NCBI GenBank assembly: GCA_937858715.1
Contig: CALLZY010000042.1
Location: 55,271 to 119,270, forward strand
Direction: 5' to 3'
Length of the DNA: 64,000 bases
From: an uncultured Chitinophagaceae bacterium
GTDB lineage: Bacteria; Bacteroidota; Bacteroidia; Chitinophagales; Chitinophagaceae
Under the pieces are notes generated by a model. It was not told the DNA's origin. It searched no databases and saw nothing but the letters and a program-made list of their open reading frames with translations. The translations under genes and the position numbers were made by a program. This document shows, piece after piece, positions 1,948-12,136 of the stretch; position 1 is the first letter of the stretch, and each line of letters starts with the position of its first letter.

Positions 1948-2901
1948 TTATGCGTTACCATTTGCAGAATTTTCTGCCCTTTCATCGGCAATTTTTTTCA
2001 GCGATGTGATGCTTACGTTCAGCTCAAAACCTATCAGCAGCACCAGCGAGTTGATGAAGATTAAAATCATCAGTATCAACACCGTTCCGATGGAGCCATA
2101 GAGCTGGTTGTAGTTGCCAAACCTTGTTACCCACCAGGAAAAGAGCAATGTCATCAGCAGCATCAGTACGGTGGCCAGTATGGAGCCGGGGTTTATCAGC
2201 GGCCACTTCTTATGCACAGCCGGGGCATGCCGGTAGATATACGAGATACTGGCGAAAAACAGCAGCACAATCACCAGCCACCTTGCATTGCGGATGATGG
2301 CCAGCACAGTTTCATTCTCCACGCCTAAGTATTCAAGCACGGCACCACGGGCAATTAACAAAAGAATGGAAGCGAACACCAGCACATACAATATCATGGT
2401 GATTTTAATCGCCACCCACCGCATATGCAGGCCCTTCCTTTTTTTAAAGCCAATATAGTTTTTGTCGAACGAACGCATGATGCCCATCATGGCGTTTGAA
2501 GAAAAGTACATAGACAGTGCCACACCCACTGATAATAATTCGTTTCTCGGCTTGTTGATGAAATCCTGGAGGAAGCCGATCAGGTTGGCGTTGTCCTTCT
2601 CGCCTGGTATCACATCCTTTATCAGTCCGAACAGTTCGGCCTGGAATTGTTGGGTAATCGGCAGGTAGGGGATTAAGGTAAACAGGAAGATGATAGCTGG
2701 TGGTATTGCCATTACAAAGTTGAACGAAATGGCCGAAGCCCTCTCCGTCATCCCGATGGTTTTTACCTGCTGCACAAAAAAGTTCACCACATCAAACAGC
2801 GGAATACCCCTGAAGCCCGGCAGCGATGTTTCCTTGCTCTTTTGTATCACCTGCTTTACAGGAGTAATACCAGCCAGTTTATTTCCAATCTTATTTATCA
2901 A
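1948..2901 (-). CDS. YihY/virulence factor BrkB family membrane protein
   Basis: Multiple TM segments, YNQLYGSIGTVLILM motif; exact start uncertain. Confidence 0.9.
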   Translation of the reverse strand: MINKIGNKLAGITPVKQVIQKSKETSLPGFRGIPLFDVVNFFVQQVKTIGMTERASAISFNFVMAIPPAIIFLFTLIPYLPITQQFQAELFGLIKDVIPGEKDNANLIGFLQDFINKPRNELLSVGVALSMYFSSNAMMGIMRSFDKNYIGFKKRKGLHMRWVAIKITMILYVLVFASILLLIARGAVLEYLGVENETVLAIIRNARWLVIVLLFFASISYIYRHAPAVHKKWPLINPGSILATVLMLLMTLLFSWWVTRFGNYNQLYGSIGTVLILMILIFINSLVLLIGFELNVSITSLKKIADERAENSANGNA

Positions 2902-3946
2902 GTGCAGCGTTTTTTTCTTTCTCTTTCCGTGCAGCGGTGCGGCGGTTCAGTTCCTGCTGGTACAGCTTTGCATACTTCATGTGGTCGTTGTAGTTGGTGG
3001 TAAATATGCTGCTGCCGTCAAACTGGCTGCTGGCTACAAAATAAAGGTATCCGGTTTTCGGCGCATTCAGCACCATGTCAATCGTTTCCCTGGCCGGTGT
3101 GCAAATGGGGCCGGGGGGCAGGCCCTCATGCTGGTAAGTATTAAAAGGCGATTTCGTTTCTAAGTGGGCATTCAGTATGCGGGTAAGGCCAAAATCTTTC
3201 AGTGCAAACTTAATGGTGGGGCAGGCCTGCAGTTTCATTCCTGTGTTCAGGCGGTTCAGGTAAGTGCTGGCAATATTTATCTTGTCGGCCTTTACATTGG
3301 TTTCCTCTTCCACTATCGAGGCAAGGGTAACCACCTGCAGCGGTGTCATGTTCAGGTTTTTGGCTTTGGCCTTTCTTTCTTCTGTCCAGAATTTGGTATA
3401 GGCGTTGTAAAACTGCTGCACTAATTTTTCAGGGCTGCTGTTCCATTTGTTTATGTATGTGTCGGGCAGCAGCAGGGCCATCACGGTATTGCTGTCCACG
3501 CCAAATTTTTGCAGCGAGTCGTTGTTGTTCAGGTAGTGCATCATTTGCAGCGAGTCGAAAATAAAATCGTAGCGCCTGCCGGTGCCCACTTTTCCGGCAA
3601 AGGCCTCTTTGGTTCTTTCTTTGTTCACCACCACTTTTACCTGCTCCTGGTTGCCGTTGCGCAGCATACGCACCAGGGCAAAAGCACTCATGCCATCTTT
3701 CAGTTTGTAGCGGCCCGGGCGGGGATTGCTGAAGCGCAGCAACTTGCAGGCAAGGCCATAGCCGCTGCCACTTATATAGTTGCTGTCTTTAAGCTGCCGG
3801 GTAAGGGTGGCCATGTCTGTGCCGGGGTAGATGTACAAAAAGCTGTTTTGCTTATTGTGCACTGCGGGGCGCATCACCTTAAAGGCAACAAAGCCGGCCG
3901 CAACCGCCAGCAACAGCACAGCACCAATAATTATCTTTTTTAGCAT
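2891..3946 (-). CDS. mltG: Endolytic transglycosylase MltG
   Basis: N-terminal anchor, LASIVEEET, YLNRLNTGMKLQACPT, SPFNTY..GLPPGPI, YLYFV. Confidence 0.95.
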   Translation of the reverse strand: MLKKIIIGAVLLLAVAAGFVAFKVMRPAVHNKQNSFLYIYPGTDMATLTRQLKDSNYISGSGYGLACKLLRFSNPRPGRYKLKDGMSAFALVRMLRNGNQEQVKVVVNKERTKEAFAGKVGTGRRYDFIFDSLQMMHYLNNNDSLQKFGVDSNTVMALLLPDTYINKWNSSPEKLVQQFYNAYTKFWTEERKAKAKNLNMTPLQVVTLASIVEEETNVKADKINIASTYLNRLNTGMKLQACPTIKFALKDFGLTRILNAHLETKSPFNTYQHEGLPPGPICTPARETIDMVLNAPKTGYLYFVASSQFDGSSIFTTNYNDHMKYAKLYQQELNRRTAARKEKEKNAALDK

Positions 3947-3948
3947 GG

Positions 3949-3957
3949 GGCAAAGGT
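3949..3957 (-). promoter_or_regulatory. Bacteroidota -7 promoter box immediately upstream of mltG
   Basis: Minus strand reads TACCTTTG (TAnnTTTG) 3 nt before the ATG. Confidence 0.55.
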
Positions 3958-3996
3958 AATGTTAGTTGTTGCTGCAATTTACTTGCTTATAGTTAA

Positions 3997-4686
3997 TTAT
4001 GAAGGGGTGGGGAGTATGGTTTCGGTTTTTGATTTTGCAGATGCGGGGTCGATGATGATGCGGTTGTTTTTGTAGTTGAGATAAAATTCGGGATGGGTTG
4101 ATTTGAAGAGGAGAACCAGTTTGTCCATGCGGTAGCGCAGCAGGTTGCCTGCCTGGCGGAAGAGTGTGACGAGTGCGGTTCCCTGTGCGGACCTGTTGCT
4201 TACAGCGTTGCGGGGTTCGGGTGCTGCGGATTCGTAGGCCAGGATTGCGGTCATGAACTCGTCGAGGCGGGACTGAGAGATACCATATGCTGAAAGTGCG
4301 GGCAGGTTTTCAGTGGCGGCTGCATGAATATTGCGGCAGATGGCGGGGAGCAGCAAATCCTTCTTCCGCATTAAAGTGGTGTAAGAGAAATTTACCTTAT
4401 ACCTGAGTTCCATATTGCCGGATGCAACGGCACTGGCGAAGACGGCAGCCGCAACGGTGGTGGCGGCGGTGCTTACTGTTTTTTTCTTTTGGGTTTTATC
4501 TTCGGTGACACCGAGGATAACGAGGATTTCGGCACGGGCTGCGGCCCTGATGGCATCAACCAATGAGGTGAACTCGGCAGTTGCCTGTTGAAAAGCGGGG
4601 ACGGTGGCGATGACAGCAGTGTTTGCGGCGCAGTAAGTGCTTACTGCATTGAACATACCAAGCCTTGCTTCCTGTTTTGCATTCAT
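3997..4686 (-). CDS. Conserved Bacteroidota hypothetical protein, Ala-rich and helical
   Basis: 229-aa ORF resembling a recurrent Bacteroidota family (MN.KQE...MF.AV...; MDKLV..FK..HPEFY..YK..R.IIDP); visibly more GC-rich than its neighbours. Confidence 0.75.
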   Translation of the reverse strand: MNAKQEARLGMFNAVSTYCAANTAVIATVPAFQQATAEFTSLVDAIRAAARAEILVILGVTEDKTQKKKTVSTAATTVAAAVFASAVASGNMELRYKVNFSYTTLMRKKDLLLPAICRNIHAAATENLPALSAYGISQSRLDEFMTAILAYESAAPEPRNAVSNRSAQGTALVTLFRQAGNLLRYRMDKLVLLFKSTHPEFYLNYKNNRIIIDPASAKSKTETILPTPS

Positions 4687-4723
4687 AGTTTAAGGTTTAG
4701 AGGAGAATGTTATGATTACAGAA

Positions 4724-4772
4724 CAAATTTACCAGATGACAGAGTCTTTTGCAATACCACTTAAGTGGTATT
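4724..4772 (-). promoter_or_regulatory. Promoter (-7 TAAATTTG, -33 TTGC) with a perfect 20-bp palindromic operator
   Basis: AATACCACTTAAGTGGTATT at 4753-4772; -7 box at 4724-4731; same layout at 31983-32031. Confidence 0.7.
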
Positions 4773-4830
4773 CTTATTAGCAAGTTGTTAATGTTTTAAA
4801 GACAGAGAGACATGCTTTAGAGGCATGGGC

Positions 4831-5049
4831 GTATGCTTGACAGACAAAGTTCTTTGCTTAGCAGACAGAATCGTATGCTTAGCAGGCAAAGTCGTATGCT
4901 TGATTGACAAAGTCGTATGCTTGACAGGCAAAGTCGTATGCTTGACAGACAAAGTCGTATGCTTGACAGACAAAGTCGTATGCTTGACAGATAAAGTGGT
5001 ATGCTTAACAGACAAAATGGTATGCTTAACAGACAAAGTTGTATGCTTG
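4831..5049. repeat. 21-bp tandem repeat, 10 full copies plus 1 partial (consensus GTATGCTTGACAGACAAAGTC)
   Basis: Units start at 4831, 4852, 4873, 4894, 4915, 4936, 4957, 4978, 4999, 5020, 5041; degenerate units extend back to ~4789. Confidence 0.97.
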
Positions 5050-5108
5050 GTTGTAAATGGCTTATGACAGGCTGAAAGTGAGTGTTTTGGGTGGAATGGG
5101 GTTGTTTT

Positions 5109-5224
5109 TTAACCGCAAAGGGAATACAAGGAACACTGAGGACACGGAGAAGGCACGGAGTTGCACGGAGGGTTTCTGTATTTTCTCTGTGGTTCTCTGG
5201 GTTTGCTCTGCGTGGCTCTGTGTA
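5109..5224. repeat. Long imperfect palindrome built from ~9-bp CACGGAG/CTCTGTG units
   Basis: Left arm aaccgcaaag..acactgag gacacggag..gcacggag ttgcacggag; right arm ctctgtgg ttctctgg..ctctgcgtg gctctgtg. Confidence 0.7.
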
Positions 5225-5329
5225 AGTATTTTTTGTGTTGGAAGTTGAGAGATTGGCGATTGCTATCGGCTCACAAGAAGCAATTTATTGCCGCAGGCAT
5301 GGCATTGTCCATGCCTTTATTATTTTTTT

Positions 5330-5545
5330 TTATTTACTTTTTGGCATTGCCCTCCCGATTTTCATCGGGACAGGCGCCAAGTAACAAAAAGGTCTAGGCA
5401 AACCCGAACGGCTCCGCCCGTTTTGCCGGCCAGCGCACAGTAGAGGCTTTAACTATGAGATTGTTTATTGTTGGCAAGGGGATTGCTTGAGACCCTGCTG
5501 CTTGTTATGCTGGACAACGAAAGGCGCTGTGCCCCGCCTTGAAAG
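5330..5545. repeat. Structured dispersed-type repeat with an inserted TCCCGAT-N4-ATCGGGA palindrome
   Basis: tttactttttggc..gccaagtaacaaaaa arms interrupted at 5353-5370; GC-rich stems gcgcacag..ctgtgc; boundaries approximate. Confidence 0.45.
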
Positions 5546-5696
5546 TGTTTATAGTATTGTATGGATTTAAGTACGGCGGTTCCGCCGGGAGGCGGACACG
5601 GCATAGCGCTTTGAATGGCTGAACCGTTGTTGCGGTTTTGGAAAGCTGTAAATTTGGTGACGGGTTGGTGAAGGAGTGTTAGAGGATGAATTACCA

Positions 5697-5747
5697 GCGT
5701 CCCTACAAGGCACATGGCCAGTGAAGGAGACGCCGGGCGGGAAAAAA
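5697..5747 (+). repeat. Cassette-leader element, copy 1
   Basis: GCGTCCCT-acaaggcacatggccagtga-AGGAGACGCCGGGCGGGAAAAAA, followed 3 nt later by an ATG at 5751. Confidence 0.75.
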
Positions 5748-5750
5748 CTA

Positions 5751-5939
5751 ATGAAAAAAGTAGAGGCTATTGTGTGGTCTGATTTGAAGGTTGGCGACAA
5801 ATGGGTGCCCTCTATAGATCGTATTGATGCGACATTGGATGATCGGAAAAAATATTTTGAAAATAATCGATCTCCAGGGTTAGAACCACCAAAGAAAGAG
5901 AAAGAGAGTCCAAAGAAGAACTCAAAATCTTTAAATTAA
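5751..5939 (+). other. Short ORF or gene remnant (62 aa), possibly the C-terminal tail of a captured gene
   Basis: Starts right after element copy 1; Lys/Pro-rich tail; stop 11 nt before the next gene. Confidence 0.35.
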
Positions 5940-5950
5940 ATGCAGTTAAA

Positions 5951-6619
5951 ATGAAAATTACTTTTGTATTATTAAGCCTTTTATTTTCTTCGGTTGGCCA
6001 TACTCAAAGATTTTCATTGGAGCATATTAATAAAAAAAAGTATTGCCCAGACTTTTTATATGCTGAAGTGGATTGCTTAATGAAACTAAAAACCAGAGAC
6101 AAAAAAATTGACTTAGCTACGATTGACCTTTCGGGAGAGACTACATCTGTAAGAAAAGTCAATGATAGTGTGTATAGTGTTAGACCATTGGTATTAAATT
6201 CTGAAATAACTATTACTGTTATTGACAATAATTCTTACAAAGTAATTGACTCTGTTTTGATTAGAAGCGGTGACTACCCTTTTAAGTTTGGAATTACACA
6301 GTTGAATATAAGAGATATGGCGCATTCATATAGGGACATTTTTTCTCAAATGAAAAGGCTTTATTTTTACTCTCTCAATAAGGAGTGTATGGATTATGCA
6401 AGCATATGGCAGGTTATCTCATATGAGCTTGTACTTAAAAGGGGAAGTTCATCAATACTAAGAATTAGGATGCATGGCAACGAGGTAATACCTAATAAGT
6501 TTAAGCAAAACCTGATTATGAAATTCCAGCAGGAAGATGTATTAATGGCTCAAAATATTCATTTGAAGAACTCTATTGGTGAATGTATTAGAGTTGATAG
6601 TTATGGAGTATATAAGTAG
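5951..6619 (+). CDS. Exported hypothetical protein with GldM C-terminal-like segments
   Basis: Signal peptide; FLYAEVDCLMKL and VISYELVLKRG..GNE..NKF...KFQQEDVLMAQNIHLK resemble GldM Ig-like domains (by eye). Confidence 0.7.
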   Translation: MKITFVLLSLLFSSVGHTQRFSLEHINKKKYCPDFLYAEVDCLMKLKTRDKKIDLATIDLSGETTSVRKVNDSVYSVRPLVLNSEITITVIDNNSYKVIDSVLIRSGDYPFKFGITQLNIRDMAHSYRDIFSQMKRLYFYSLNKECMDYASIWQVISYELVLKRGSSSILRIRMHGNEVIPNKFKQNLIMKFQQEDVLMAQNIHLKNSIGECIRVDSYGVYK

Positions 6620-6658
6620 AGGTATTAGCCCTTGCTGGTGTTCTGCAAAAAGCAGTAC

Positions 6659-6820
6659 GCCGCTGTCATGTCTACGGCAGATAAATTGTGTTTTTCGCAG
6701 CCGAGTGTTCGTTGAACTTTCATAGGCGATGTGTCGAATGGCTATGTGAGTTTCTCCATGCCGAGTGTCGGTTCAACGCAACTTCATAGGCGTAGTCTCG
6801 GCGTATAGCTATTTGTGATT
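6659..6820. repeat. Two or three tandem ~60-bp imperfect repeats with GCCG(AG)...(CT)CGGC hairpins
   Basis: gccgagtgt..ttcataggcg..gctat.tgtga.tt at 6700 and 6760; shorter related unit at 6659. Confidence 0.7.
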
Positions 6821-6826
6821 TGGCTG

Positions 6827-6862
6827 CCGGACTCAGGATGTAACAATACCGGTTTTTTTTAT
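6827..6862 (+). terminator. Possible terminator closing the + strand cassette
   Basis: ccgg..ccgg stem followed by a run of T. Confidence 0.4.
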
Positions 6863-6963
6863 ATCTTATTTTTTTAATTTGCGATAACCTTTGAGTAATA
6901 TTTATTATTGTTGCTAATAAACTTAAGAATAAAAGTAGGACAGGCTAAGCACACAGGAACAGT

Positions 6964-7746
6964 TTAAAAGGAGTTTTTACAAATACCTTCAGATAATAAA
7001 TACTCTCCGAAGCTTAAAAAATTCAGTTTTAGCAAATCGTCCACTTTAACATTAGTATTTTTATATTCATCGAACAATAGTTTAAGTGAATTGCAGTTCA
7101 ACTGTAAGCTGAAAACTAAGTCTTTATCAAGTGTAATCATCACTGACCTTTTTAAATCAATAATATTCCCTTTTGTGCCCTCCCCCTCACACGACATGAC
7201 AACATATTGTGGAATAAAATGACTATCGCAAACAGAGACTACGAATTGTGTTCTACTAATAATTTTATTGAACTTAAAAAGCGTATCATTTTCAATGTAA
7301 CTGATAAACAGGTTGTCTTTTGCATTTACTGTTGAAATCGCAATACCCATTAGCATTGATCCGGGATAGGGGATGCCATCAAATTTTACATCTTCTTTTG
7401 AATCGCCATTTGAACTGTACACAGCGCCAATTAACATATTTTCTTTCTTGGAGTAAAAAGATTGAAAATTTCTTGCATCAAGTTTTGAATAATACAGCTT
7501 TGTCTTAACCAGTGTCCCATTTTTATCTGAATATCTTTTTACTGCAAATTTCTCGCCTAATTGGTTATTCCATTTTTTGACACTTGTTTTTTTAATAACG
7601 CCGTTCACATCATTCGGAAATCCTAAATCAAAAACGGGCTGATTTTGTACAAACACTGAGTCTAGTAAATTAAGTGTAAATAATTTTTGACAGAAACAAT
7701 TAGCAGAAAATGTGGCTGCGACTATTAGTAGTGTTACTCTTTTCAT
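6964..7746 (-). CDS. Exported hypothetical protein (cassette cargo)
   Basis: 260-aa AT-rich ORF with a signal-peptide-like N-terminus. Confidence 0.75.
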   Translation of the reverse strand: MKRVTLLIVAATFSANCFCQKLFTLNLLDSVFVQNQPVFDLGFPNDVNGVIKKTSVKKWNNQLGEKFAVKRYSDKNGTLVKTKLYYSKLDARNFQSFYSKKENMLIGAVYSSNGDSKEDVKFDGIPYPGSMLMGIAISTVNAKDNLFISYIENDTLFKFNKIISRTQFVVSVCDSHFIPQYVVMSCEGEGTKGNIIDLKRSVMITLDKDLVFSLQLNCNSLKLLFDEYKNTNVKVDDLLKLNFLSFGEYLLSEGICKNSF

Positions 7747-7767
7747 TGTTTAAAGTTTGATTCCGAG

Positions 7768-7823
7768 TTTTTTTTCGCCCCTGCATCTTCCATGCTGCAG
7801 ACTTGTGCCAGTCAGGAACGCCG
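7768..7823 (-). repeat. Cassette-leader element, copy 2
   Basis: Minus strand CGGCGTTCCTGACTGGCACAAGTCTGCAGCATGGAAGATGCAGGGGCGAAAAAAAA, ~22 nt before the ATG at 7746. Confidence 0.85.
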
Positions 7824-7869
7824 AGTCCGCTACACACAAGGCTGGTCAATGAGACTCGGCTGGGAAGAG
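7821..7869. repeat. Extension module A, copy 1 (49 bp, identical to 8441-8489)
   Basis: CCGAGTCCGCTACACACAAGGCTGGTCAATGAGACTCGGCTGGGAAGAG; CCGAGTC/GACTCGG stem. Confidence 0.95.
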
Positions 7870-8382
7870 GGAGACACCGGGCGGAAAAATTTCATATAAT
7901 CCGCTGCCATCAAATTCAAACTCACTATTCGTTCCTGGTGCTAAAATTACTCCACATTGATGCTCTCCAAAATTTTTCTGAAACTGTTCCCAATAACCTT
8001 TATTCAATAACTCTGTTTCTCCTTCAACTAGCTTGTCATAATTAAATAGATTTATGAAGTCTATGAAAATAGATTTTTCGATAATTACTACAAGTCCAGA
8101 ATCTGTTGAAAAGTTTCGGGCATTAATATTCTCATCATTGCTCTTTTTAATATCACTCACTTTTATACTTGCCAATAAGTTTCCAGAATTAATGGATATT
8201 ATGGCAAACGGAGCTTCTGTATAAGGAAATATCTTGCTTTTGATCTCCTCTTCTATATCGTTAGCAATTGAAGTATTTGACAATTCTTCTTTTATTCTGC
8301 CAAGATATAATGCGTCAATAACGTAGTAAGACTTGCCCACCTCTATTGAAATATCTTCTCCATGTAATGAAATATTAGCCAT
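7846..8382 (-). CDS. Acidic cytoplasmic hypothetical protein (cassette cargo)
   Basis: Likely start MANISLHGED at 8382; the longer ORF start lies inside repeats; the C-terminus reads into repeat DNA. Confidence 0.7.
   Translation of the reverse strand: MANISLHGEDISIEVGKSYYVIDALYLGRIKEELSNTSIANDIEEEIKSKIFPYTEAPFAIISINSGNLLASIKVSDIKKSNDENINARNFSTDSGLVVIIEKSIFIDFINLFNYDKLVEGETELLNKGYWEQFQKNFGEHQCGVILAPGTNSEFEFDGSGLYEIFPPGVSLFPAESH
7868..7889 (+). repeat. Half copy of the cassette-leader element in inverted orientation
   Basis: GGAGACACCGGGCGGAAAAA matches the 3' half of the other copies. Confidence 0.75.
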
Positions 8383-8390
8383 CTTAAAGG

Positions 8391-8443
8391 TTTTTTCGCC
8401 CGGCGTCTCCTGTGCTTCGGACTTGTGCCAGGCAGGGACACCG
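8391..8443 (-). repeat. Cassette-leader element, copy 3
   Basis: Minus strand CGGTGTCCCTGCCTGGCACAAGTCCGAAGCACAGGAGACGCCGGGCGAAAAAA, 8 nt before the ATG. Confidence 0.9.
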
Positions 8444-8489
8444 AGTCCGCTACACACAAGGCTGGTCAATGAGACTCGGCTGGGAAGAG
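8441..8489. repeat. Extension module A, copy 2
   Basis: Identical to 7821-7869. Confidence 0.95.
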
Positions 8490-8497
8490 AAAAAAAA

Positions 8498-9214
8498 CTA
8501 CCAAAAACTTAATAAATAATATACAAATGAGCCCCTCCCAAAACTATATTCCAATGTGTTAGTATATTCCGTGATTTCCTTTTTATTCGACATTTCTTTG
8601 GTCACAGTTTTTATTCGGTTATCAGAAAGAAATATTTCTTCACTTTGCCATGGGTGAAATGTGGAGTTCTGATAATAAGTGGTATCCCAAATACTCAAAT
8701 CTCTAAGATTCGAAATTTTCATCCTAATAATATTATAGCTTTCACAATGGATGCTTTTTGGGTGATTTGTATACTTATAACACCCAACAATATCGGCATA
8801 TTCTGAATCTTTACCTGAATGGACCTTGGCCATGTGAAAGACAGTACTGTCATTCTGCAGGATAATATAGTCGATCGTTTTTCTGCCACCCTGATATTCC
8901 CTGTCGATTGAGTTTTTTTGGGCAACCCATTTTCCATTTTTCCACTTTTTGAAAGCGATGTCGTTGCTTTTATTCTTATTAATCCAGGATTTTATTGTAA
9001 TAACTGTATCAGTTTTAATAATAGTTAACAGAGGGAAAGAAATCTTTTCCTCTGGTGAAAATTTTATTCCCCGAAGTTTGAATATGTCAAAATCTTTGTA
9101 GATTACTGATGTATCTCCGTTAGAGATATTCTGAATATTAACGCTGTTTTCGTAATCCTTACAGCTAAAGAGAAATATTCCACCTGTAATTATTAAACTA
9201 AGCCAGGATTTCAT
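8498..9214 (-). CDS. Hypothetical lipoprotein (cassette cargo)
   Basis: Lipobox IFLFSC followed by KDYE; AT-rich. Confidence 0.75.
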   Translation of the reverse strand: MKSWLSLIITGGIFLFSCKDYENSVNIQNISNGDTSVIYKDFDIFKLRGIKFSPEEKISFPLLTIIKTDTVITIKSWINKNKSNDIAFKKWKNGKWVAQKNSIDREYQGGRKTIDYIILQNDSTVFHMAKVHSGKDSEYADIVGCYKYTNHPKSIHCESYNIIRMKISNLRDLSIWDTTYYQNSTFHPWQSEEIFLSDNRIKTVTKEMSNKKEITEYTNTLEYSFGRGSFVYYLLSFW

Positions 9215-9231
9215 AATTTTTTATAGAAAAA

Positions 9232-9286
9232 TTTTTTACCCCGGCGTTTCCCGTCTTTCGGACTAGTGCCAGGCAGGGGCACCGGG
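9232..9286 (-). repeat. Cassette-leader element, copy 4
   Basis: Minus strand CCCGGTGCCCCTGCCTGGCACTAGTCCGAAAGACGGGAAACGCCGGGGTAAAAAA, ~17 nt before the ATG at 9214. Confidence 0.85.
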
Positions 9287-9359
9287 TTTTATGACTTCTT
9301 ACCTGAAATGAAGTTCCTAAACTTTCTCAATCGAAGCAAGTTTGGTTTCTTGTAAGACC
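9281..9359. repeat. Extension module B, copy 1 (79 bp, near-identical to 10259-10337)
   Basis: ACCGGGTTTTATGACTTCTTACCTGAAATGAAGTTCCTAAACTTTCT...GGTTTCTTGTAAGACC. Confidence 0.95.
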
Positions 9360-9489
9360 GGGATGATAAGGCACTAAACAAAATTCTGAAAGGCAAAACA
9401 GCTTGCATTTCTGCACCCAGTAAACGACATGTTTCAACAACTATATCCAACTATTTCGAGGCAATGCCTCTATTATACATCACTAAAAT

Positions 9490-10179
9490 CTATCTGTCTA
9501 TTTTGTTTTTCAACCTTTTAACTGATTTCTCAATTTGGCTTTTTATTTGACCTTTATATCCCATTATTTTTTTTTGCAAGAAAACAAGAGTATTAGTGTT
9601 GCCAATAATTGTAAGTGCATCTGCAACCTGTAATGGATGTTTGTCAAAAATCGGCAACAACAATTCCATCGTTTTCTCCTTTTCAAAATACTTTAGTGCA
9701 GCATAAACGAGCATTTCATTTTCTTTGGGCTGTTCGTCAGCGGTTAACTTTTCTTTTAGCCATTCTGAAATATTCATAGCCCGGCCAACTGCAACTGTAT
9801 TCGCTATCGCCCACTTTAAATTCGCAGAACTTTCTTGTGATTCAAATAATCTCATTAAAACAGTTCCATCAAATGGGAATTCGGCTTTTCCTAAAGCCCT
9901 TACAAGAGTTTCTTGAGAATTATGTTTATTATCAAGTTGAATAAGCCAATTTAGAATTATATCGGTAAGCCGACTATCAACTTTATCTAATTTTAATATA
10001 TCATCAGAATCGCTAATTTTTTTATATCCCTCCTTATGTAAACTTTCAATGAAAGGCTTTTCGATATTCCTTATCTCCAAAGTCTTTTTTATGCCCTCAC
10101 TTTCTTTTATTTTCAGCATTTGCTTGTATTCGCTATTTTCTTTAAACTTGCTTAAAAACTCATCTGCTTTCATAATCAT
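9490..10179 (-). CDS. HEAT/ARM-repeat-like hypothetical protein (cassette cargo)
   Basis: Helical repeats QETLVRALGK, LKWAIANTVA, QVADALTIIGN. Confidence 0.7.
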   Translation of the reverse strand: MIMKADEFLSKFKENSEYKQMLKIKESEGIKKTLEIRNIEKPFIESLHKEGYKKISDSDDILKLDKVDSRLTDIILNWLIQLDNKHNSQETLVRALGKAEFPFDGTVLMRLFESQESSANLKWAIANTVAVGRAMNISEWLKEKLTADEQPKENEMLVYAALKYFEKEKTMELLLPIFDKHPLQVADALTIIGNTNTLVFLQKKIMGYKGQIKSQIEKSVKRLKNKIDR

Positions 10180-10208
10180 TATTTAGTCAGGTATTATTTT
10201 TTAGACAA

Positions 10209-10264
10209 TTTTTTCGTCCTGCCGTCTCCCGTGCTGCTGACTTATGCCAGGCAGGGACACCGGG
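10209..10264 (-). repeat. Cassette-leader element, copy 5
   Basis: Minus strand CCCGGTGTCCCTGCCTGGCATAAGTCAGCAGCACGGGAGACGGCAGGACGAAAAAA, ~30 nt before the ATG at 10179. Confidence 0.85.
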
Positions 10265-10337
10265 TTTTATGACTTCTTACCTGAAATGAAGTTCCTAAAC
10301 TTTCTTAAATGAAGCAAGTTGGGTTTCTTGTAAGACC
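10259..10337. repeat. Extension module B, copy 2
   Basis: Near-identical to 9281-9359. Confidence 0.95.
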
Positions 10338-10351
10338 TGACAGTCAGACCA

Positions 10352-10380
10352 AACAAAAACCCCGGCGCAGGGCCGGGGTT
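10352..10380 (-). terminator. secG terminator
   Basis: Minus strand AACCCCGGC-cctgc-GCCGGGGTT-TTTGTTT. Confidence 0.85.
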
Positions 10381-10404
10381 GGAGTATGCTGTATTGCTAT
10401 ACGA

Positions 10405-10767
10405 TTATTTAGGAGGCTGCTGTTGTGCAGGGGCTGGTGTGGCCGGTGCTGTATTAGCAGGGGTGGTGTTCAGTGTTCCCGGTGCAGGTGCTGTTTGTGT
10501 GCTGGTTGGGGCACCTTTAATATCAATTGTTTTTTCAGTTGTCCGGTTGATGAACATTACCGAGATCATGCAGAGCAGTGCTACCACGCCGCCAAAGATC
10601 CAGGTGCCTTTTTCAAGTACATCGGTGGTTTGCTTCACACCCATAAACTGATTGCTGAAACCGGCAATGTTTCCGGAGAGGCCACCGCCTTTGGGGTTCT
10701 GTACCAATACAATAAGACCAAGGACCACACAGGCAACGATAATAAGTATTACAAAAAGAAGGTTCAT
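10405..10767 (-). CDS. secG: Preprotein translocase subunit SecG
   Basis: VLVQNPKGGGLSG..QFMGV..TTDVLEKGTW. Confidence 0.95.
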   Translation of the reverse strand: MNLLFVILIIVACVVLGLIVLVQNPKGGGLSGNIAGFSNQFMGVKQTTDVLEKGTWIFGGVVALLCMISVMFINRTTEKTIDIKGAPTSTQTAPAPGTLNTTPANTAPATPAPAQQQPPK

Positions 10768-11591
10768 ATCAGTTTCTTTAATTCGTCAATTTTGGCTGCA
10801 AAATAAGTGCTTTTGGCGGGTTCAAGCAAACTTAATTTGGTATAAATGGCAATGGCCCGCTGGGGGCTGCCCTGTTTTTCCCATACTTCGGCCATAGCCT
10901 CGGTAACCACTTCCTTGTCGTCCAGCGAATGTTCGGCCAGTTCTTCCACCTTTTTCTCCGAAACAGGGGCTACCTGTTGCGTTATTTCTGCCAGCGGCTG
11001 CTTTTTCAGGGTTTTGAGCCAGTCGGTAAAGCTGCGCAACTGCTGGCCAAATTTATCCTGCGGTTTATCGTCTTCCCTGAGTTTAATGCCCTGCGAGGCA
11101 AAATAATCAACTGTATGGTAGGGTTCAAAAAGCAGTTCGTTGCCGGTGGCAGGCTGTATAGTCATGTCGGCAAGGCTGATGGCTGTTGCAGCCAGCGGAG
11201 TTTCTTCTACGGGGGCATCAGTATCGTCTGCTGAGCCGGTAATAAGTTCGGGTTCAGCAGCGGGCTGTTCAGCAGGTATTGCTTCAACCAGTGCAGCAAT
11301 TTCTTCAACCGGTGATGTTGTTTCTTTTGCCGGAGCAGTTTCGGTGGCGCTGCCTTTGCCGGTAAGCAGGTAATCGGCCCACAACGGATTGCTGAAATGC
11401 AGCAGGGTGCGGTGCAACTGCTTTTGATACAGCTCTTCGTTTCCTCCCTGTAGTTTTTTAGCCAGCAACAGTTGGGCAGGGGCAAAGTATGGATAGCTTG
11501 CAGCCAGTTGCTGCAGTTCTTCGATACTGCATTGCTCAACAGATTCTTTTTGCAAAAGGGATTGTGCCAGCTGGCTGACTTCGGAATTCAT
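10764..11591 (-). CDS. Conserved Bacteroidota hypothetical protein (TPR-like C-terminus)
   Basis: YPYFAPAQLLL N-terminus; VVTEAMAEVWEKQG...AIAIYTKLSLLEPAKSTYFA C-terminus; usual neighbour of secG. Confidence 0.85.
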   Translation of the reverse strand: MNSEVSQLAQSLLQKESVEQCSIEELQQLAASYPYFAPAQLLLAKKLQGGNEELYQKQLHRTLLHFSNPLWADYLLTGKGSATETAPAKETTSPVEEIAALVEAIPAEQPAAEPELITGSADDTDAPVEETPLAATAISLADMTIQPATGNELLFEPYHTVDYFASQGIKLREDDKPQDKFGQQLRSFTDWLKTLKKQPLAEITQQVAPVSEKKVEELAEHSLDDKEVVTEAMAEVWEKQGSPQRAIAIYTKLSLLEPAKSTYFAAKIDELKKLI

Positions 11592-11611
11592 GGCGGCAAT
11601 TTACGCTTAGC

Positions 11612-12136
11612 TTACCAGTTTGAGAAAAGTTGGTTGAAAATTTCATCAGTCATCGTCCGGATCATTTCATCCTTGAGCGAACTTTCGGCCTGCTGCAGGG
11701 TTTGGTTTCCCTTAAAGTCAAAACCTTTTGAAACATCATGTTCGCTCACCTTATCGGCCTTACGGTCATTTAAAACAATATGAATGCCTACTGTAATTCT
11801 GTTGTTGGCGGCCTGCTGCCCGGAAATAGCCGATGTGCTGAGCGAATAATCCCTTATCTCGCAACTCAGTTCCCAGTCGGCATTGTCGTTATTGGTCTGC
11901 GACATTTTTGTTTGGGAAAGAAATTTCTGGCGCAGCTTTTCTGTTAATGCCGGGGCCAGTTGCGGGTTGATGTATTGCGCCCGGTTTTCAACCAGGTTGA
12001 TTTTAATTGTCTTGATAGAATCGGGAACAGAGGCATCACTGAATTTATAAATGCCGCAACCTGTGTTGGAAGCAACAGTTATAAATACTGCGATGGCAGC
12101 AGCCAGAACGAAAGCTATGCGGGTTAAATTTTTCAT
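11612..12136 (-). CDS. LptE-family lipoprotein
   Basis: Lipobox-like NTGC-GIYKFS; usual position after the sigma-54 activator in Bacteroidota. Confidence 0.75.
   Translation of the reverse strand: MKNLTRIAFVLAAAIAVFITVASNTGCGIYKFSDASVPDSIKTIKINLVENRAQYINPQLAPALTEKLRQKFLSQTKMSQTNNDNADWELSCEIRDYSLSTSAISGQQAANNRITVGIHIVLNDRKADKVSEHDVSKGFDFKGNQTLQQAESSLKDEMIRTMTDEIFNQLFSNW

Follow-up and report, generated by a model that had tools for sequence, protein, structure and literature searches.

How a low-GC island of orphan genes, punctuated by copies of one hairpin, came to lie between mltG and secG, and which enzyme acts on that hairpin, are the questions raised by a 64,000-nt stretch of DNA from an uncultured Chitinophagaceae bacterium (assembly GCA_937858715.1, contig CALLZY010000042.1, hereafter C42, positions 55271-119270). 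This whole stretch is referred to as the window, and positions without a contig name are window positions. An earlier note, made from the sequence alone, had described a gene-capture array whose recombinase acts in trans. The notion of an enzyme acting in trans stands, and this enzyme is probably a transposase associated with repetitive extragenic palindromes (REPs), that is, a REP-associated tyrosine transposase (RAYT), and not an integron or XerD recombinase. The notion of freely captured genes does not stand, as they are not free cassettes and are instead the remains of an Rhs orphan toxin/immunity array. Taking the two statements together, we are highly confident that the hairpin, here named T1, is a REP-type hairpin of a RAYT and that the island is an Rhs-derived immunity island.

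Structure and distribution of the T1 hairpin

Five copies of T1, a bulged hairpin of ~57 nt, were confirmed in the window where they had been reported, at 5694-5748 on the plus strand (copy 1, variant T1-A) and on the minus strand at 7768-7826 (copy 2), 8391-8447 (copy 3), 9232-9288 (copy 4) and 10209-10267 (copy 5). A nhmmer profile built from these copies was searched against the 4.4-Mb assembly, which is fragmented into 282 contigs with open reading frames (ORFs) called mechanically, and recovered the five at E-values of 4e-9 to 6e-16. Copy 1 had the E-value of 4e-9 and scored 60 bits with the covariance model R1, and copies 2 through 5 were likewise found by both methods. The tails of copies 1 and 5 are directed into the island. 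As previously described, each copy ends in an A run that precedes a co-oriented ATG, by ~3, 21, 9, 17 and 30 nt for copies 1 through 5, respectively.

The T1 stem is formed by CCCGGCGTC-CC and GG-A-GACGCCGGG with a single bulged A. Stem pairing was 84.9% across 17 sequences compared with 37-48% when the partner columns were slid, and 86.8% compared with 34-52% across 27 further copies, which were mostly from another species and were aligned to the model and are thus biased towards it. Some double changes occurred, e.g. at the bulge-adjacent pair, which alternated between C-G and U-A (7 and 18 sequences). Folding energies of single sequences were weakly better than those of shuffled sequences (z of -0.35 to -2.2), and the 23-nt loop was more conserved than the stem. 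An additional inner helix of 3 bp was tried and was unsupported. The loop resembles the -24/-12 elements of a sigma-54 promoter (TGGCAC...AGCA), a candidate that was rejected as the GG-to-GC distance is 14 nt and not 12 and the spacing varied among copies. An intrinsic terminator was also rejected, because the A's follow the hairpin on the gene-sense strand and the T's precede it on the other, so that neither strand fits. A search of Rfam with 4000-12000 gave no match at E <= 1, and an exact-pattern scan of the genome-contig database gave zero matches.

Fifteen T1 copies were located in the genome on six contigs, namely C42 (the five of the window), C266 (three), C219 (three), C153 (two), C98 (one) and C44 (one, at the contig end), and all were intergenic or overlapped the ends of ORFs. 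A BLAST search of T1 against 40 relatives returned almost nothing, and a covariance model was therefore needed to find copies in relatives. With this model, T1-like hairpins were identified in 17 of 60 congeners at 1-17 copies each.

Association of T1 with a RAYT gene

The T1 copy on C44 starts where a 196-aa ORF (C44:1643-2233) ends, at its stop codon, and this ORF matched the NCBIfam profile REP_Tyr_transpos (NF047646) with an E-value of 4.5e-17 and 62 bits over positions 7-146 of 146. A paralogue on C166, 56% identical to the C44 protein, matched the same profile at 1e-20 and 74 bits, and these two intact genes together with fragments were the RAYT complement of the genome. The match of the C44 protein to the IS200 profile NF033573 had an E-value of 0.065. 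In an alignment of 11 orthologues the HUH motif PNH[VIL]H and the motif of the catalytic tyrosine, Y[IM]H[ND]NP, were invariant, and the sole PDB match of the resulting profile was Escherichia coli TnpA_REP (4ER8, E = 0.024) with both motifs aligned. The length of the proteins (196-208 aa) and their NHVH or NHIH and YIHNNP motifs would fit TnpA_REP subclasses 2.6/2.4, and their W motif reads WK or WE and not WQ. Bacteroidetes enzymes of these subclasses have been described as ~180-195 aa long with NH[LIV]H, WQ and YIH[QN]NP or YIxNNP motifs and with atypical flanking structures (PMC6006769, Quentin et al. 2018).

The C44 gene has a hairpin other than T1 in its 5' flank, and the C166 gene has hairpins of two further families, T3 upstream of its 5' end and T2 overlapping its 3' end. 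On a contig from a metagenome-assembled genome that is 99.9% identical to C44 (L062), the intact RAYT gene is followed by T1, genes of 299 and 280 aa, a second T1-type hairpin (T1') and a gene of 155 aa, all co-oriented and with a GC content of 33-38%. In seven T1 copies the hairpin is directly preceded by the end of the RAYT coding sequence, its final codons and stop codon, GTCATAAA (…GGTAAGAAGTCATAAA). Orthologues of the RAYT were present in 28 of the 60 congeners and in 24 of 151 genomes of the order, and nearly every intact one was followed by a hairpin of the form N-GTC-C(C)...loop...(G)G-[A]-GAC-N' and then by GGGAAG or an A-rich tail. The outer stem of these hairpins varied by lineage with complementarity kept. 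The position of T1 at the RAYT stop codon, the hairpins of the same design behind the orthologues and the seven copies with the RAYT stop region identify T1 as the cognate hairpin of a RAYT. A HUH/RAYT enzyme had been among the partners proposed earlier, when T1 was not recognised as a named family; here the element is placed among the REP-type hairpins of Bacteroidetes TnpA_REP enzymes (PMC6006769).

The array is recombinase-less as had been proposed, with no tyrosine recombinase on the 133-kb contig carrying the window, and attC cores were absent from the T1 consensus. Nine matches to PF00589 were found in the genome and none were on C42, C266, C153, C219, C98 or C44; in a 111-kb variant contig, none were within 10 kb on either side. 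A tyrosine recombinase was therefore rejected as the partner of T1.

Island genes and their relationship to Rhs modules

The island at 5750-10200 has a GC content of 31-35% compared with 47-50% in its flanks and 41.7% in the genome. Its first ORF, of 62 aa (5751-5939, plus strand), is the C-terminal remnant of an Rhs C-terminal (CT) toxin, being 81% identical to residues 290-351 of a 351-aa Rhs-core protein on C282, and the homology begins at its first codon, 3-4 nt past the tail of T1 copy 1. The next gene, cB222 (5951-6619, plus strand), encodes a lipoprotein-like orphan immunity paralogue of 222 aa with 72% nucleotide identity to C282:12840-13508, which lies directly downstream of an Rhs-CT module. 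Likewise, cE238 (8498-9214, minus strand) encodes a 238-aa lipoprotein and orphan immunity paralogue with 82% nucleotide identity to C282:10749-11465, a gene that immediately follows a 402-aa Rhs-CT module; here the homology spans the ORF, 8 nt upstream and a 3' hairpin. A truncated leader of an Rhs-CT module is located at 9381-9463 (minus strand), downstream of the orphan gene cF, and is 85-87% identical to the middle of the conserved intergenic leader of the three Rhs modules in a strain variant (L046). This remnant is cut off by a 71-nt repeat named modB together with T1 copy 4.

The other island genes are cC, which encodes an exported orphan protein of 260 aa (6964-7746, minus strand), cD, of 178 aa, whose last codons and stop come from a repeat in this genome (7846-8382, minus strand), and cF, of 229 aa (9490-10179, minus strand), whose identical protein was found in 16 metagenomic contigs. 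None of the six cargo proteins matched Pfam, NCBIfam or PADLOC. No Rhs core was present in the window region, and secG, not a full-length rhs gene, lies upstream of the array. Given the paralogy of cB222 and cE238, the toxin C-terminus and the leader remnant, the island is, as read from its sequence, an Rhs orphan toxin/immunity array in decay, with T1 units standing where toxin modules have been lost.

The tandem modules of C282 encode proteins starting MAMPGRNFSSEKYRYGFNGKEKD… that scored 50-52 bits with TIGR03696 (Rhs-associated core, cut-off 32.5), each followed by a small low-GC gene. Five or more Rhs-core modules make up the orphan array at C282:9400-18300, and a T3-like hairpin (GCCGAGTATC...GCAGTCTCGGTG) is located after its 238-aa immunity gene, so that REP-type hairpins also occur inside an intact array. 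Other REP loci of the genome included immunity-type genes, namely a DUF1963 gene and a weak Imm44 match.

Variation of the locus across species and strains

A 229-aa ORF, a 21-nt variable number tandem repeat (VNTR), repeat clutter and the low-GC island make up the region from ~3950 to 10340, which is bordered by mltG (2891-3946) on one side and by the secG terminator on the other. The gap between the sigma-54 activator gene and mltG was 8.2 kb here and 1.8-2.2 kb in every measurable congener, and mltG and secG were adjacent in nine of nine fetched relatives by tblastn, from which it follows that ~6.3 kb is an insertion specific to this lineage and that empty sites exist. A comparison of the mltG-secG interval had been proposed in the earlier note and yielded an empty site in every congener checked. 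In the closest congener (G044, MltG 78% identical), a decayed, AT-enriched sequence similar to modB and to the 5' half of T1 is located beside secG (G044:C3, 3330-3480, locus L021), which suggests an older occupied state and later loss; nothing resembling modB or T1 was present at this site in more distant congeners. The 229-aa ORF next to mltG (3997-4686) was absent from the closest congener and had sub-threshold family matches only.

Strain loci were recovered by exact-protein look-ups and one metagenome pattern scan and took two forms. One was identical to the window (e.g. L044, 100% over 10.6 kb). The other, found in L046, L045, L048 and L052, has 5,814 bp more between cD and cC, encoding three Rhs-CT toxins of 335-359 aa, each with an immunity gene of 167-273 aa, and the L046 modules start MPGRNFSSEKYRYGFNGKEKD. 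The indel junction is at 7887|7888, within the A tail of an inverted half-T1 made up of the 3' arm and A tail (7868-7889, plus strand), and its ends share no repeat. In the long form cD ends at a stop codon of its own and an Rhs leader comes next, and in this genome cD runs into the repeat, so that the window carries the deletion derivative. The one clean strain difference is a deletion ending at a T1 tail.

A second T1-bounded variable island was located by gyrB (C219:10780-15880, compared with L038, L040 and L042), which encodes an HNH protein, a DNA methyltransferase and an SH3 lipoprotein and also has a small pair of genes; the units that differed among strains end at T1. Strain contig L038 has a single T1 where this genome has T1, the HNH gene and T1, and homology resumes at the T1 tail; another T1 together with the SH3 gene was present or absent between strains. 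At the C140 locus, two T1 copies and other genes of a related strain occupy a place where this genome has none. These comparisons support the original picture of strain-variable, orphan immunity-type genes separated by one repeated hairpin of a single-stranded DNA type. In other species, low-GC arrays headed by a RAYT gene were found in G071, G007 and G018, including RAYT-REP-92aa-REP-146aa at 29-32% GC in G071, and G018 has an Rhs-type toxin gene, its immunity gene, a RAYT pseudogene, a T1-like hairpin and a 221-aa gene in succession.

Modules joined to T1 and related hairpins

Copies 2 and 3 of T1 are each fused head-to-head with a T2 hairpin (CCGAGTCCGCTACAC...GAGACTCGGCTGGGAAGAG), at 7818-7869 and 8436-8497, respectively, both on the plus strand. 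The first is 96-98% identical to the hairpin overlapping the 3' end of the C166 RAYT gene, the A tail of the second abuts the cE238 stop codon, and the genome holds ~8 T2 copies in total. T3 hairpins (GCCGAGTGTC...GTAGTCTCGGC) at 6687-6834 (plus strand) are of the type located upstream of the C166 RAYT gene and gave BLAST matches to C166:3559-3632 and to C34. T2 and T3 do carry the tetranucleotides GTAG/CTAC, placed alongside the stem arm instead of at the outer foot.

Two modules recurred at T1 itself. The modB repeat at 9289-9359 (minus strand) is joined to T1 copy 4 and recurs at 10267-10337 and C266:1687-1757; the second window copy (feature 10268-10337, minus strand) is on the side of T1 copy 5 at the island edge, adjoining the secG terminator. 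An alignment to the 3' end of the C44 gene matched the last ~17 nt of modB (AGGTAAGAAGTCATAAA) to the final RAYT codons and the stop. The 88-nt flankA (5609-5696, plus strand) is always joined to T1-A, the same 74-88 nt preceding the T1-A copies on C266 (C266:169-244) and C98 (C98:21928-22001), and homology with L046 stops at 5608, directly before it. All three flankA copies carry TAAATTTG / GCTGTAAATTTGG, matching TAnnTTTG, ~70 nt upstream of the T1-A tail. We take TAAATTTG to be the Bacteroidetes -7 promoter consensus, and this box may drive the gene behind T1-A.

Position of T1 relative to genes and Rhs cores

Whether hits consistently precede orphan ORFs had been put forward as a test. In this genome, 8 of the 15 T1 copies were within 60 nt of a co-oriented start and ~11 of 15 were oriented to gene starts. 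Among 23 independent congener copies with a neighbouring gene, fifteen faced a co-oriented gene, twelve of these within 81 nt, and about nine of the twelve genes had a GC content of 0.34 or less; the remaining copies faced the 3' ends of convergent ordinary genes. T1 before a gene is thus a tendency and not a rule, statistically indistinguishable from random orientation, and this placement comes near the random distribution relative to genes that had been named beforehand as speaking against an array.

In G018, G070, G016 and G004, RAYT-like genes lay no more than 3 kb from an Rhs core, and T1-like hairpins were within the same distance in G007 (twice), G061 and G064 (twice). Among the Rhs loci listed, this proximity was roughly ten-fold over a rough expectation of less than 0.5 per set; association statistics were rough throughout and the lineages are related. 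At T1 tails, the junction of copy 1 with the toxin remnant was at 3-4 nt, that of the 5.8-kb indel at 0 nt and that of copy 4 with cE238 within 9 nt.

Proposed mechanism and alternative explanations

On balance we favour, with some reserve, the explanation that T1 is a low-copy REP-type hairpin serving as the single-stranded DNA recognition and cleavage site of the RAYT encoded on C44, which cuts and rejoins DNA there, and that it punctuates a decayed Rhs array. The RAYT would act in trans on T1 folded in single-stranded DNA, cleave a few nucleotides 3' of the hairpin foot, at a short fixed distance, and join that end to other DNA. Such cleavage would be akin to that at the right end of IS200/IS605 elements, where TnpA is reported, from work on IS608, to cut in this way. 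Joining could give rise to RAYT-T1 insertions beside immunity genes and to adjacent deletions or replacements that remove toxin modules. Intact immunity ORFs would be left directly behind the A-rich tail, the T1 tail and hairpin would become their 5' leader, and selection would retain the immunity genes. An active role of the RAYT in this remodelling is proposed tentatively, and we lean slightly against it. The broader proposal, that RAYT/REP systems actively remodel polymorphic-toxin loci by stripping toxin modules and assembling or reshuffling orphan immunity genes behind their own hairpins, is in our estimate unlikely.

Several observations weigh against the favoured explanation. The RAYT scores of 62 and 74 bits are below the 80-bit NCBIfam equivalog cut-off, the count of 15 T1 copies is far under that of classical REP families, and characterised REPs have a 5' GTAG tag that T1 lacks. 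Hits to a generic regular expression for the GTC..GAGAC hairpin were not enriched over the reversed genome (40 compared with 92 hits), which indicates that no large REP population is hidden in the genome and, together with the 15 T1 and ~8 T2 copies, that T1 is not a classical high-copy REP family. Orientation to gene starts (~11/15 here and 15/23 in congeners) was not significantly unlike 50% and the copies are non-independent. A very low-GC kilobase was near four of nine REP loci of the genome compared with a 16% background, which is only weakly significant, and low-GC orphan genes adjoin only a minority of the RAYT orthologues in the order. A derivation of flankA from a decayed RAYT 3' end was unconvincing, the alignment being only 60-66% identical with gaps, and a clear derivation from the RAYT stop region is limited to the last ~17 nt of modB. 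Deletions ending at a hairpin could equally be explained by replication slippage or stalling at secondary structure, with no transposase involved.

The last point leads to an explanation that we regard as doubtful, in which low-GC DNA that is dispensable and was acquired horizontally simply collects T1, T2 and T3 as REP/REPtron sequences of a selfish or relic nature, rearrangement is due to ordinary illegitimate or homologous recombination, and the coincidence of junctions with T1 tails reflects hairpin-induced replication errors or chance. The low copy number, the occurrence of T1 in both orientations relative to genes, the weak orientation and GC statistics and the lack of adjacent orphan genes at most RAYT orthologues of the order would be expected, as would the many T1-like copies of G071 located just past the stop of housekeeping-size genes, and published REPs are mostly extragenic and downstream of genes (PMC3733652). 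Such passive accumulation does not readily account for three independent junctions 0-9 nt from a T1 tail, for a 5.8-kb indel whose ends lack repeats, for RAYT genes or pseudogenes that head or sit within toxin/immunity arrays in several species with diverged hairpins, or for the roughly ten-fold excess near Rhs cores. Were T1 instead comparable to attC in an integron- or rAID-like platform, units bounded by T1 would be excised as circles and reinserted at other T1 copies by an enzyme acting in trans. Four direct-oriented T1 copies between four co-oriented genes, the T1-HNH gene-T1 arrangement at C219 compared with a single T1 in another strain, the T1 units and other genes of L041 at a site with none in G000, and the likeness of RAYT-headed arrays to the layout of rAID-1, where an enzyme gene at the 5' end is followed by low-GC genes in one direction and the spacers are repeated, all fit a cassette system, which is nevertheless improbable. 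No cassette recurred in another order or in a second T1 context, and the homology of the cE238 paralogue covers the ORF and a 3' hairpin of the T2/T3 type and not a unit from T1 to T1. The toxin and leader remnants show that an Rhs array gave rise to the genes where they now stand, roughly half of the T1 copies are followed by no gene, and T1-bearing contigs have no IntI or XerD gene and T1 no attC cores.

A role at the RNA level is compatible with the other explanations and is, taken by itself, highly improbable. T1 would be a hairpin of the 5' untranslated region with an A-rich translation start, flankA would supply the promoter for T1-A, and together they would keep orphan immunity genes expressed after loss of the toxin gene upstream. 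The A tail is 3-30 nt before an ATG in every window copy and in roughly half of the remaining ones, TAAATTTG, the Bacteroidetes -7 consensus, is in all three flankA copies, and T1 would be transcribed given its position between the RAYT gene and the next co-oriented gene. Neither the lack of an Rfam match nor the weak folding z-scores favour a structured RNA, many T1 copies face the 3' ends of genes, and conservation of the loop beyond the stem fits recognition of DNA by a protein.

Comparison with known systems

Among the REP-type hairpins that accompany RAYTs in Bacteroidetes, a kind already known, T1 forms a new family, and it differs from classical REPs in two of their criteria, copy number and the GTAG tag. 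The likeness extends to a single-domain HUH-Y enzyme with NH[LIV]H and YIH[QN]NP motifs at one to two gene copies per genome, to flanking 'atypical secondary structures' of the gene that recur elsewhere in the genome at extragenic positions, and to a bulged hairpin whose stem co-evolves with the enzyme lineage. In contrast to the hundreds of copies of classical REPs (usually >100 per genome), T1 has ~15; it lacks the 5' GTAG/GTGG guide tetranucleotide, with CGTC within its stem; its 23-nt loop is long and conserved; and it is concentrated in toxin/immunity islands, where it often keeps the last RAYT codons. The right ends of IS200/IS605 elements (IS608, ISDra2) similarly have a subterminal bulged hairpin downstream of tnpA and a junction a fixed short distance 3' of its foot, although the enzyme here scores as a RAYT and not as IS200, multiple identical IS copies are absent and the left-end partner differs.

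Rhs orphan arrays of E. coli, Salmonella and Serratia (PMC3150448, PMC3967940) share with L046 and C282 the tandem arrangement of leader, Rhs core, variable CT toxin and small immunity gene, and share toxin remnants, low GC and strain variability, the window itself having only remnants. The locus differs in that no full-length rhs gene is upstream, the site is mltG-secG and several toxin modules have been replaced by RAYT-derived hairpin units, leaving immunity genes alone. The recombinase-associated acquired interbacterial defence (rAID-1) clusters of Bacteroidales (Ross et al., bioRxiv 10.1101/471110) are likewise arrays of orphan immunity genes that share one direction and a low GC content and are separated by repetitive sequences, and their layout (at least two co-directional genes, GC of at most 41% and repetitive spacers) has a counterpart in the four co-oriented genes of the island at 31-35% GC with T1 between them. 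Where the array head is intact (L062, G071), a gene for a DNA-processing enzyme is likewise at the 5' end, but this enzyme is an HUH Y1 transposase and not an XerD-like tyrosine recombinase, the repeats are its hairpins, and the immunity genes are linked to Rhs modules. Integron arrays and clusters of attC sites lacking integron-integrases (CALINs) resemble the island in having a folded single-stranded site with an extrahelical base between promoterless-looking genes and no adjacent recombinase, whereas T1 is the hairpin of an HUH enzyme, has no R/L core sites (RYYYAAC...GTTRRRY), is found on contigs without IntI and does not form units of an ORF plus site.

RAYTs are widespread, vertically inherited 'domesticated' transposases, for which we know of no established cellular function. 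Orphan immunity arrays, including those of acquired interbacterial defence (AID and rAID) and the orphans of Rhs and contact-dependent inhibition (CDI) systems, protect bacteria from the toxins of their neighbours; to our knowledge, how they are built up and pruned is clear only for the Bacteroidales arrays linked to XerD. The literature searched yielded no account of toxin/immunity arrays with RAYT/REP units inside them or at their head. If the broader proposal of active remodelling is true, RAYT/REP would stand beside integrons and XerD-linked rAID arrays as their single-strand-DNA counterpart, and remodelling would be the missing cellular role of RAYTs. The RAYT hairpins at sites of toxin loss and the natural variants differing by three toxin/immunity pairs make the remodelling idea testable, and even if the link is passive the locus is a clear example of an Rhs orphan array decaying into an immunity-only island.

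Other repeats in and around the locus

A dispersed repeat of ~80 nt (TTATTATTTTGTTGGTTTTGAGAGGATAAG...) is located right after the T1 tail behind the intact RAYT gene of L062 (L062:1087-1170) and was present on at least nine contigs, with other copies on C119, C216, C140, C153 (4121-4195), C223, C127, C217 and, outside the window, at C42:25521-25590. The space to the left of flankA is filled by dispersed repeat families at 5110-5232 and 5313-5630, each of which was found on 2-8 other contigs. Between these and the 229-aa ORF is the 21-nt VNTR (4770-5090), which has ~10-15 units and is open on both strands. Related arrays are on C140 and C187, and the unit number differed between L043 and L044.

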